Positions 6,496 to 25,364 of a stretch of DNA of 40,844 bases are shown here, piece after piece. A program made the translations under genes and the position numbers. Positions within the stretch are counted from its first letter, which is position 1. The number at the start of each line of letters is the position of its first letter. Source of the stretch: a virus (Duplodnaviria > Heunggongvirae > Uroviricota > Caudoviricetes); IMG/VR virus record IMGVR_UViG_3300025916_000008, positions 1 to 40,844 of that record. One strand, given 5' to 3'. Below the pieces are notes generated by a model. It saw only the letters and a program-made list of their open reading frames with translations. It was not told the origin of the DNA and made no database searches.

Positions 6496-6568
6496 AGGGG
6501 TGTAGCTCAACTGGAAGAGCAGCGGTCTCCAAAGCCGCGTGTTGGGGGTTCGAGTCCCTCCGTCCCTG
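6496..6568 (+). tRNA. tRNA-Trp(CCA)
   Basis: Cloverleaf; loop CT-CCA-AA; T-loop TTCGAGT. Confidence 0.95.
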
Positions 6569-8368: not shown

Positions 8369-8397
8369 CGGAGTGTGGCGCAGCTTGGCTAGCGCGC
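8369..8397 (+). pseudogene. 5' half (acceptor strand + D arm) of a tRNA-Pro, truncated by the endonuclease insertion
   Basis: CGGAGTG-TG-GCGC-AGCTTGGCTA-GCGC-G followed directly by TACAGT -10 and the endonuclease start. Confidence 0.75.
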
Positions 8398-8409
8398 TAC
8401 AGTAGGTCC

Positions 8410-8814
8410 GTGGAGCTTTCAACCGCCCAGAAGGGCGAGCTAGCCATGCTGAAAGTCATGACGCGGGCCGTCGAGCTGGGCTGGATCGCCAGTCGGCCAA
8501 CGCGCGACTGCCGATACGACTTGATCCTCGACGAAGGCTCCAAGCTGTACCGGGCGCAGGTCAAGTTTTGTGCTCGGAAGTCCTCCCACTCCACCGGGGT
8601 GGCACATCTCGATCTCACCAAGGGCGGCGCGCGGAACCGCGCCTACCTGGAGGACGAGATAGATGCCGTGGTGGTCTACGTGGCGGCTATCGACCTGATC
8701 GTCTGGCTCGGCCGGGATATCTTCCATGGCCGGAAGCAATTGCACATCAGGTATAAGCCGACCAGGAGCGGCCAGGTGCAGGGGACGCTGATGGCGTCCG
8801 AGTTCGCCTGGTGA
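8410..8814 (+). CDS. PD-(D/E)XK homing endonuclease, I-Ssp6803I-like
   Basis: KGELA..V...A...GW.ASRP..DCRYDLILD......RAQVK pattern; tRNA context; leaderless (TACAGT 6 nt before GTG). Confidence 0.8.
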   Translation: MELSTAQKGELAMLKVMTRAVELGWIASRPTRDCRYDLILDEGSKLYRAQVKFCARKSSHSTGVAHLDLTKGGARNRAYLEDEIDAVVVYVAAIDLIVWLGRDIFHGRKQLHIRYKPTRSGQVQGTLMASEFAW

Positions 8815-10546: not shown

Positions 10547-10619
10547 GCCGCCTTAGCTCAGCAGGCAGAGCGATCCCCCTGTAAGGGAAGGCGCGGCGGT
10601 TCGATTCCGTCAGGCGGCT
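10547..10619 (+). tRNA. tRNA-Thr(TGT), C33
   Basis: Cloverleaf; CC-TGT-AA. Confidence 0.85.
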
Positions 10620-10620
10620 C

Positions 10621-12069: not shown

Positions 12070-12543
12070 ATGCCATCCGAAATATCCTGCGCCTGGGCAG
12101 CCGGGATTCTCGACGCCGACGGATGCGTAACCATGAGACCGCCATCGGGCGGTCGGTTCCGGTCCCCCTACCTTGTAGTCGACTCCACCGACAGGGAGAT
12201 CCTGGAAGAGTTGGTTGCCAGCTTCGGCGGTCGCATCCACGAGAAGAGCGTCCGGCATGAGCACTGGCGTCGCCAGTGGTCCTGGCGGATGTACGGGACC
12301 GTTGGCATCCTTGAGTTCCTGCGGCTGGTCATCCCGTACATGCGATGCCCCGCCAAGGTAGCTCGGGCGAGGATGCTAATCGACGAGTACCCGGCGCTGA
12401 CTCAGCGAAACGGCTGGTACACCCCAGAACAGCGGGCAGCAAAGCTCGACATGGAGGAGCGGTTCATGGCTATCGGTTACGGCCGAGGAGCCAGCCTGCG
12501 AGCCCTCCCAAGACCCGGAAGCGTAAGCCGAGCTTCGGCCTAA
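12070..12543 (+). CDS. Single-motif LAGLIDADG homing endonuclease
   Basis: WAAGILDADGCV motif plus LVVDSTDREILEEL..FGG.I; extended -10 TGG-TAGATT 7 nt before ATG 12070; stop codon inside the next tRNA's D loop. Confidence 0.85.
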   Translation: MPSEISCAWAAGILDADGCVTMRPPSGGRFRSPYLVVDSTDREILEELVASFGGRIHEKSVRHEHWRRQWSWRMYGTVGILEFLRLVIPYMRCPAKVARARMLIDEYPALTQRNGWYTPEQRAAKLDMEERFMAIGYGRGASLRALPRPGSVSRASA

Positions 12544-14643: not shown

Positions 14644-14650
14644 CGGTAAG

Positions 14651-14728
14651 AGGACAGTGGTGAAATCGGTAGACATTGGCGAGGAAGGGTGCCACCCCCT
14701 CATGCAGGTTCGAGTCCTGCCTGTCCTC
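14651..14728 (+). ncRNA. tRNA-Leu-like RNA with remodelled anticodon arm
   Basis: AGGACAG/CTGTCCT acceptor, Leu-type D region GGTGAAATCGGTAGAC, perfect T arm; no 7-nt anticodon loop. Confidence 0.55.
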
Positions 14729-14771
14729 TCGCTAAAGGCGGCCCTGGTTGCAACCGGGGCCGCCTCAACTC

Positions 14772-15063: not shown

Positions 15064-15136
15064 GGGTCGTAACCCAAACGGTTGCGGGGCCTGCCTGTGG
15101 AGCAGGTATTAGCGGGTTCGACCCCCGCACGACCCT
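15064..15136 (+). tRNA. tRNA-His(GTG), irregular 5' region
   Basis: CCTGC-CTGTGGA-GCAGG arm, T arm; position-8 register and discriminator atypical. Confidence 0.7.
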
Positions 15137-15140
15137 CCGT

Positions 15141-15236
15141 GGTGAACATGGTGCAACGGAAGCACGCCGGCCTAGCTGGATTTACTGCTCTCGTGGAGCC
15201 GGAGACCGCCGGGGTTCGACTCCTGGCGTGTTCATC
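15141..15236 (+). tRNA. tRNA-His-like gene with 19-nt insertion in anticodon loop
   Basis: G-1:C73, GTGAACA/TGTTCAT acceptor; loop CT+[15174-15192]+GTGGA; T stem extended. Confidence 0.7.
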
Positions 15237-15242
15237 ACCCCT

Positions 15243-15323
15243 GGCGGAGTGACCCGAGATGGCATGGGGGCGGTCTGTAAAACCGCTGCTTCGGCACGGC
15301 TGGTTCGAGCCCAGCGTCCGTCA
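15243..15323 (+). tRNA. tRNA-Tyr(GTA)
   Basis: Type II; CT-GTA-AA. Confidence 0.9.
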
Positions 15324-15334
15324 CGTAGTTCTTT

Positions 15335-15407: not shown

Positions 15408-15577
15408 CTGGGAAGTGGTGTAAGAGGGCGATCCGGCCAAGCTCGTGGCCACGGGCGAAGGCAGGGGAAGCCCCTCGACAGCGCTGCCCGCCGAGACCAT
15501 GGCAGCCGGCGGGCGGACAGCATCCCCGGGTTCCACCCCGGGGCGGTCCTGGCGAGAACCCAGGCTTCCCAGCCAAC

Positions 15578-25042: not shown

Positions 25043-25188
25043 CGAGCACAAGCTGAGGTTCAGGCTGAGGCTGACACGCTCCCACATTGACCGGAAGGCC
25101 CTGGTTCGACTCCAGGTCCCGGCACCCGCGCCGGGATAGCTCAGGGAGAGCACCCGGAGGGAGCCTCAGGATCAGGATGTGACGCTCG
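25043..25188 (+). ncRNA. YrlA-like Y RNA #1 (permuted tRNA core on long stem)
   Basis: T arm 25100-25116, closed acceptor hairpin TCCCGGC/GCCGGGA, D arm 25139-25151, long bulged terminal stem; TGG-TACGTT -10 at ~25028-25036. Confidence 0.8.
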
Positions 25189-25196
25189 AAGCTGAA

Positions 25197-25364
25197 GCTC
25201 GCGCCAGCACGTGCAGATCCACCTGGTGGCCGCAGACGACAAGAAGCTGCGGGTTCGAGTCCCGCCCGGGGCGCTCCGTGCCCCGGTGGTCCAAGGGCAA
25301 GACGTCTTCCGTTCAGGATGACGGCCACCCGACAGCCGCTGCACGCGGACCTGGTGCCAGGAGC
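25197..25364 (+). ncRNA. YrlA-like Y RNA #2
   Basis: T arm 25249-25265, closed acceptor hairpin CCGGGGC/GCCCCGG, D arm GTC/GAC, stems GGTGGCCG/CGGCCACC, CGTGCAG/CTGCACG, GCGCCAG/CTGGTGC. Confidence 0.8.

Follow-up and report, generated by a model that had tools for sequence, protein, structure and literature searches.

The window, which is the whole stretch of DNA analysed here (40,844 nt), comprises the first 40.8 kb of a virus record of 162,409 nt that is estimated to be complete, and has a G+C content of 70%. The presence of Lsr2, DUF397, a DnaE-type polymerase and baseplate J points to a myovirus-like phage of actinobacteria; its phage marker protein has no match among cultured phages. 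The window carries an array of 39 tRNA genes called by ARAGORN, all on the + strand between positions 6496 and 15758. Within the array lies a tRNA-shaped element of ∼100 nt (15139–15238, + strand) that ARAGORN misses. It starts directly 3′ of the U73-C-C end of a non-canonical tRNA-His(GUG) gene (15064–15138, + strand), with C at −1 (and hence no G−1), U73, a purine at position 8 and a 3-bp D stem. Downstream of it is an irregular tRNA-Tyr(GUA) gene (15243–15324, + strand), again missed by ARAGORN. No sigma-70 promoter was detected near the element. Related arrays were gathered via the proteins that flank the tRNA array, and of the 18 examined (including that of the window) four contain the element, those of the window, L242, L256 and L051. 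In every case it is found directly 3′ of the same unusual tRNA-His and upstream of the tRNA-Tyr.

The extent of the element is a best estimate from an alignment of the four sequences and their consensus fold, and is slightly greater than the core of 15141–15236 delimited in an earlier note on this DNA. Starting at the 5′ terminus, the RNA would form the ascending strand of an acceptor-like terminal helix (15139–15148), making 10 bp with 15229–15238. As read from the sequence, the acceptor proper (15142–15148/15229–15235) begins with a G.U pair, beyond which G15141, in the position of G−1, is able to pair with C15236, in that of C73 and followed by A-C-C. The D arm (15151–15165) has a 4-bp stem and a 7-nt loop; the stem is invariant in the four copies, and is of a type shared with the tRNA-His of the distant relatives L068 and L165. 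The strand then continues into an enlarged anticodon arm (15167–15202). Its 5-bp stem (15167–15171/15198–15202) is the perfect CCGGC/GCCGG helix recognized previously, and closes a loop of 26 nt that is predicted to form an irregular rod. The loop contains an insert of 19 nt (15174–15192), equal in length and position in all copies, followed by a vestigial GUG anticodon (15193–15195; GTG in the window, L242 and L256, GCG in L051). The T arm (15207–15228) is lengthened, as had been noticed earlier, with 7 bp and an 8-nt loop, exceeding the standard by 2 nt on each side. In L051 it has 6 bp and an 8-nt loop that keeps only UCG. The lengths of the terminal and T helices are thus 10 + 7 bp in the window and 11 + 6 bp in L051, and we know of no translating tRNA in which both are as long as this.

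The element scores 25.5 bits with the Rfam tRNA model, under the cut-off of 29, and no family of Rfam 15 matches it. The insert alone likewise has no Rfam match, and no second copy in the genome. Removing 15174–15192 leaves CT-GTG-GA, the same loop as in the His gene at 15064, in agreement with the earlier note. That note also called the 19-nt insertion between positions 33 and 34 precise; the insertion is there, but its precision is uninformative, because every pure insertion can be undone precisely. ARAGORN calls the shortened sequence tRNA-His(gtg), but only after shifting the acceptor by 2 nt; this reduces the D stem to 2 bp, puts a G.G mismatch into the T stem and loses the G:C 'identity' pair. 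Without the shift, the de-inserted product has 7/7 acceptor/T stems with an 8-nt T loop, compared with 7/5 and a 7-nt loop in the canonical molecule. Running ARAGORN with relaxed settings that allow introns was uninformative on this high-GC genome. The first 7 nt of the insert resemble positions 38–44, so that it may have originated by local duplication. In three of the four copies the core of the insert complements the GUAAAUCC stretch found in the anticodon arms of ordinary tRNA-Tyr; this observation was made post hoc, the complementarity does not hold in L051, and it has not been counted.

The three homologs, all in related soil phages, were first detected by BLAST (E = 9e-13) and by a two-sequence covariance model (111–112 bits), and are 95% (L242), 93% (L256) and 75% (L051) identical to the element of the window. 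They score 106–130 bits, compared with ≤31 for anything else, although they are also the training set of the model. Of 50 related virus records, one proved to contain the element in a search with the two-sequence model. Exact and degenerate DNA patterns applied to viral contigs and GTDB genomes gave chance matches only, apart from L051, and blastn against cultured phages and plasmids gave generic tRNA matches only.

The substitutions between the copies preserve the fold. Twelve changes fall in the stems of a cloverleaf defined a priori, and none breaks a pair (simulated P = 0.001–0.003 if all are transitions). With the fold derived from the alignment itself, pairing is seen in 122 of 122 cells, five pairs are changed on both sides, and one in 500 shuffles scores as high; this figure leans towards a structure taken from the same alignment. 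The terminal helix has three pairs with changes on both sides and none broken in the four copies, and there are compensatory changes in two of the five pairs of the anticodon stem. Covariation has low power here, as there are no more than four copies and three of these are closely similar. Among the window, L242 and L256 the element is 92–95% identical, compared with mostly 63–85% for the flanking His, Val, Arg and Cys genes, and this high identity could result partly from recent exchange of a cassette. The insert is also retained, with 18 (L242), 17 (L256) and 16 (L051) of 19 nt identical to those of the window. Judged from these patterns of substitution, selection acts on both the cloverleaf fold and the insert, and a plain pseudogene, the case that the earlier note named as refuting its reading, is accordingly unlikely. 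A pseudogene riding on a recently exchanged His-Tyr cassette would account for the patchy distribution in 4 of 18 arrays and for the invariant tRNA bases that L051 has lost. It is hard to reconcile with 12 stem changes that leave every pair intact, with flanking His and Tyr genes that are more diverged than the element, and with the insert being kept in a copy of 75% identity, and we regard it as improbable.

The L051 copy is the most instructive. There G32-C33 and GCG replace C32-U33 and GUG, the D loop has 8 nt without G18, and U54 and A58 are also lost, while all the stems and the insert are kept. This copy thus retains 16 of the 19 nucleotides of the insert but four of the seven of the old anticodon loop, and neither U33 nor the anticodon survives, which supports one of the two readings offered in the earlier note, that of a non-decoding RNA. 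In the consensus fold the insert pairs with nucleotides 34–35, and 33 pairs with 37; the changes in L051 (U.G to C-G and G.U to G-C) are compatible with the rod. Since these changes are one-sided in a G.U-rich helix, and folds of the single sequences disagree, the inner rod is a prediction. Two other local structures were considered and rejected. The long rod is more stable than a small hairpin within the insert (AGC/GCU), one pair of which is broken in L051, and a short stem of CCGGC/GCUGG with the 5′ end of the insert forms in single folds and is broken (A.C) in L051.

These features bear on whether the insert is removed. It is too short for a group I intron, as stated earlier, having 19 nt, no catalytic core and no match to an Rfam intron. 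It ends in C in all four copies and is preceded by U33 in three, where group I introns end in G and follow a U at the 5′ site (10.1101/2020.01.27.920355). The earlier note proposed instead a mini-intron spliced by proteins, whereby a nuclease would cut between U33 and A and between C and G34, and ligation would give a second working tRNA-His. Removal of the insert does restore CU-GUG-GA in three of the four copies, conserved inserts in phage tRNAs that have found no explanation have been reported from Lak phages (10.1101/356790), and a host RtcB could serve for ligation. The three GUG copies are, however, so close (92–95% identical) that seven shared loop bases would be expected anyway, and their common anticodon means little. 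The spliced L051 product would carry G32-C33-GCG, and in that copy it is the positions required of a spliced tRNA that have drifted, more than the insert. Even in the window the product would be non-canonical, with the 7/7 branch and 8-nt T loop described above. The two cut sites have no common sequence, and inspection reveals no bulge-helix-bulge: pairing of 28–31 with nucleotides 14–17 of the insert includes a C.C mismatch and lacks an outer helix, and in the consensus fold the sites are 2 bp apart. RtcB, which the earlier note had suggested looking for, was found neither in this genome (where the controls were detected) nor in the partial record of L051, and the relative G002 has RtcB but no element. 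No splicing endonuclease or ligase occurs among the Pfam matches of 155 open reading frames, and the only 2H domains of the genome are part of a multi-domain protein of 1825 amino acids. A search for T4 Rnl1 was blank, as was its control. Moreover, there are phages with the odd His gene that lack the element, and so such phages do not need a second, spliced tRNA-His. Splicing is thus very unlikely. The same low probability attaches to the version in which the three GUG-bearing phages excise the insert with host or phage proteins, L051 being a derived copy in which splicing has stopped and the fold was kept; were it true, a tRNA intron removed by proteins would be on record for the first time in a bacterial system.

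The ends of the RNA and its ancestry can be examined by comparison with tRNA-His. The G15141:C15236 pair, from which a His identity (G−1:C73) had been deduced, is indeed invariant in the four copies, but whether it is the terminal pair is uncertain. The helix extends past it, with 15139–15140 opposite 15237–15238 (one both-sides change) and three extra pairs in L051, so that the terminal helix has 10–11 bp across the copies. The 39 called tRNA genes of the window have C74 without exception, and the canonical His genes of the clade encode it too; in the element this position is A or G in each of the four copies. A register with A15237 as the discriminator, followed by CC, is equally good, and the His identity would correspond to just one of three possible registers. 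With the insert removed, all four copies score best against the canonical His class, which is first or second when the loop is masked; in that case Pro(UGG) or Gly scores equally in two of the four. From this comparison the element is likely to have descended from a phage tRNA-His.

If RNase P cut before G15141, and the 3′ end were trimmed to C15236 and CCA added, the product could be histidylated without being able to decode. Such a chargeable decoy, which is a special case of the reading favoured below, would tie up HisRS or EF-Tu, or draw a toxin that targets aminoacyl-tRNA. RNase P measures along the acceptor–T branch, and a longer T stem shifts this ruler. This, the two to three pairs beyond the G:C pair, the missing C74 and the competing A15237 register all weigh against charging; the invariance of the G:C pair speaks for it. 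There is also a precedent in irregular G−1 tRNAs that are charged by Escherichia coli HisRS and do not insert histidine (PMC5389517). On balance charging is possible, though doubtful.

The non-canonical tRNA-His upstream of the element is more widely distributed than the element itself. Its U73 is borne out by L121, which encodes a CCA. Apart from the GUG anticodon it has none of the identity features of a bacterial tRNA-His, and yet it stands in for the canonical gene. It is present in 11 arrays (window, L042, L051, L121, L237, L240, L242, L245, L256, L260 and L333), never alongside a canonical His gene. The element is missing from seven of the 11; in six of these an unrelated hairpin RNA takes its place, and in one the place is empty. 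Within the stretch of array retrieved for these seven relatives, no tRNA with a GUG anticodon was called other than the odd His. The element is therefore dispensable. Its occurrence in four of the 11 odd-His arrays compared with none of the seven canonical-His arrays is not significant (P = 0.11), and the two genes are also linked; a division of labour between the odd His and the element was rejected on these grounds. Thg1 was not found in five records. In many relatives the T loop of the tRNA-Tyr lacks TTCGA (e.g. GTCGGCA, GCCGGCA and TCCGATT), and L047 has at ∼880–955 another non-canonical His(GUG), with C73, no G−1 and a 3-bp D stem, that is missed by ARAGORN.

The element is separated from both neighbours by 0–4 nt, and its acceptor–T helix is the part of a tRNA read by RNase P. 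The body might then be a spacer, merely supplying the cut sites that free the 3′ end of the abutting tRNA-His and the 5′ end of the tRNA-Tyr. Yet L121 joins the same His straight to Tyr with no such module, six relatives have the unrelated hairpin RNA in this slot, and a conserved insert sequence would be needless for this purpose, making the explanation unlikely.

A further comparison is with the YrlA-type Y RNAs, which have tRNA-like D and T arms, and a long stem in the position of the anticodon arm (PMC4201824). The element could be a re-permuted Y RNA, whose rod, lying where YrlA has its Ro-binding stem, docks the host Ro60/Rsr protein. Two copies have GCCGGA, one base from GNCGAA, and a gene for a TROVE protein is present in seven of 44 related records. 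A YrlA-like RNA occurs elsewhere in the window, at 25226–25331 (and ∼25043–25190), with 29 bits and E = 0.0014, below the cut-off. However, the Ro-binding motif of Y RNAs, GNCGAAN0-1G (PMC4201824), is absent from all four copies of the element, and neither an HMM search nor tblastn with the proteins of the relatives detected a TROVE (Ro60) gene in this genome. There is no match to YrlA (RF02553) at the element, which is not circularly permuted, having the ordinary order of tRNA arms and open acceptor ends. We consider a Y RNA, like splicing, to be very improbable. A search for DUF2828 was blank, and its control was likewise silent.

The hairpin RNA that fills the slot before Tyr in several relatives is unrelated to the element. 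It is irregular and 75–105 nt in length, and is located at L253:2080–2185, L259:2465–2570, L245:3049–3150, L240:3367–3470, L237:2973–3068, L042:1535–1633 (− strand), L260:1459–1535 and before position 1553 in L333. Near its 5′ end it has GNCGRACG, close to the Ro-binding motif of the Y RNAs, which it matches exactly in L260. The hairpin RNA of L253 has no Rfam match.

Taking these comparisons together, the element is best explained as a conserved, unspliced, non-decoding RNA of ∼100 nt with the shape of a tRNA, probably derived from tRNA-His, in which the anticodon arm has been turned into an irregular rod; we give this reading a probability of about 0.7. The RNA would be transcribed together with the tRNA array, and released by those host enzymes that process the tRNA-His and tRNA-Tyr on either side. 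Its tRNA-like body would stabilize it, and binding may take place on the enlarged anticodon arm, whose irregular rod ends in a conserved loop. Among its conceivable roles the likeliest is that of a tRNA mimic, which would occupy a host tRNA-binding protein during infection, for example a defence enzyme that attacks tRNA or a tRNA sensor. This decoy role takes up about half of the probability given to the reading as a whole.

The element may be set against several known RNAs. Compared with canonical tRNA-His(GUG) (RF00005), it has the cloverleaf order, acceptor and anticodon-stem sequences near those of the canonical His of related phages, G:C at −1:73, and GUG in three of four copies. It differs in its 26-nt anticodon loop, the T stem of 6–7 bp with an 8-nt loop, the terminal helix of 10–11 bp, U72, the missing C74, and the lack of conservation of U33 and the anticodon. 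T4 RNAC and RNAD lie in the tRNA cluster of that phage and are matured in the manner of tRNAs. These RNAs (species 1 and 2) are small phage RNAs of unknown function (PMC9697503). Compared by description, the element resembles them in its location inside a tRNA cluster, its non-decoding character and its conserved fold; they differ in host range and size, and the element keeps a full, four-armed His-like body. The G−1 tRNA1 species of soil polycistrons described by Mukai et al. (PMC5389517) are tRNA-like RNAs with G−1 in irregular tRNA clusters, and are charged by HisRS in vitro and unused in translation. Again compared by description, they have three-base anticodons and 7/5 or 8/4 branches, from which the element differs by its inserted rod and its longer branch. 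By analogy, the element would work most like T4 RNAC and RNAD and the charged but non-decoding G−1 RNAs. The nearest reported inserts are those of the tRNA genes of Lak phages, which are conserved, have no known splicing route and are assumed to be introns (10.1101/356790); for the present element the diverged L051 homolog argues against excision. No description of the family was found in the literature searched.

Phage tRNA arrays are usually read as decoding sets, and inserts in their genes as introns. The present example suggests that a short 'intron' in the anticodon loop can be a functional, conserved portion of an RNA that does not decode and goes undetected by tRNA finders. This is a family of small RNAs, of a size that can be synthesized and assayed, offering a way to ask which host tRNA-binding protein may be addressed by such phage mimicry. 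Its distribution is patchy, and its importance will be moderate until a partner or phenotype is found.

To judge from its sequence, the array carries further non-decoding passengers. A Leu-type tRNA body with an 8-bp acceptor-like stem follows Val(GAC) at 14650–14730 of the window, and occupies the same slot in L242, L256, L051, L032 and L042. Its anticodon loop differs between phages, and it is probably another conserved, non-decoding, tRNA-shaped RNA. A conserved, structured spacer of ∼160 nt changes its slot in the array (∼15410–15570 in the window, 1650–1480 on the − strand of L032 and 430–275 on the − strand of L121), and has no Rfam match. At 8369–8814 the 5′ half of a tRNA-Pro-like sequence is followed by a gene for a PD-(D/E)XK endonuclease (PF11645) and then by an intact Pro(CGG); by its arrangement this is a free-standing nuclease apparently inserted with duplication of the tRNA. 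An open reading frame at 12070–12543, judged by eye to resemble a LAGLIDADG homing endonuclease, overlaps the start of Ser(CGA). Among the called genes, Thr(UGU) at 10547–10620 has C33 and is given as '???' by ARAGORN, with the same call in L042. A His(ATG) is called near the place of Ile(TAT) in three relatives (L042:3618–3692, L240:996–1070 and L242:1013–1087). Lastly, a spacer motif with ACAACAGCCCCCTGA and GAAGGG, with a faint likeness to a hammerhead, precedes Cys on the − strand of L032 (1320–1200), L042 (900–790) and L051 (1940–1850).
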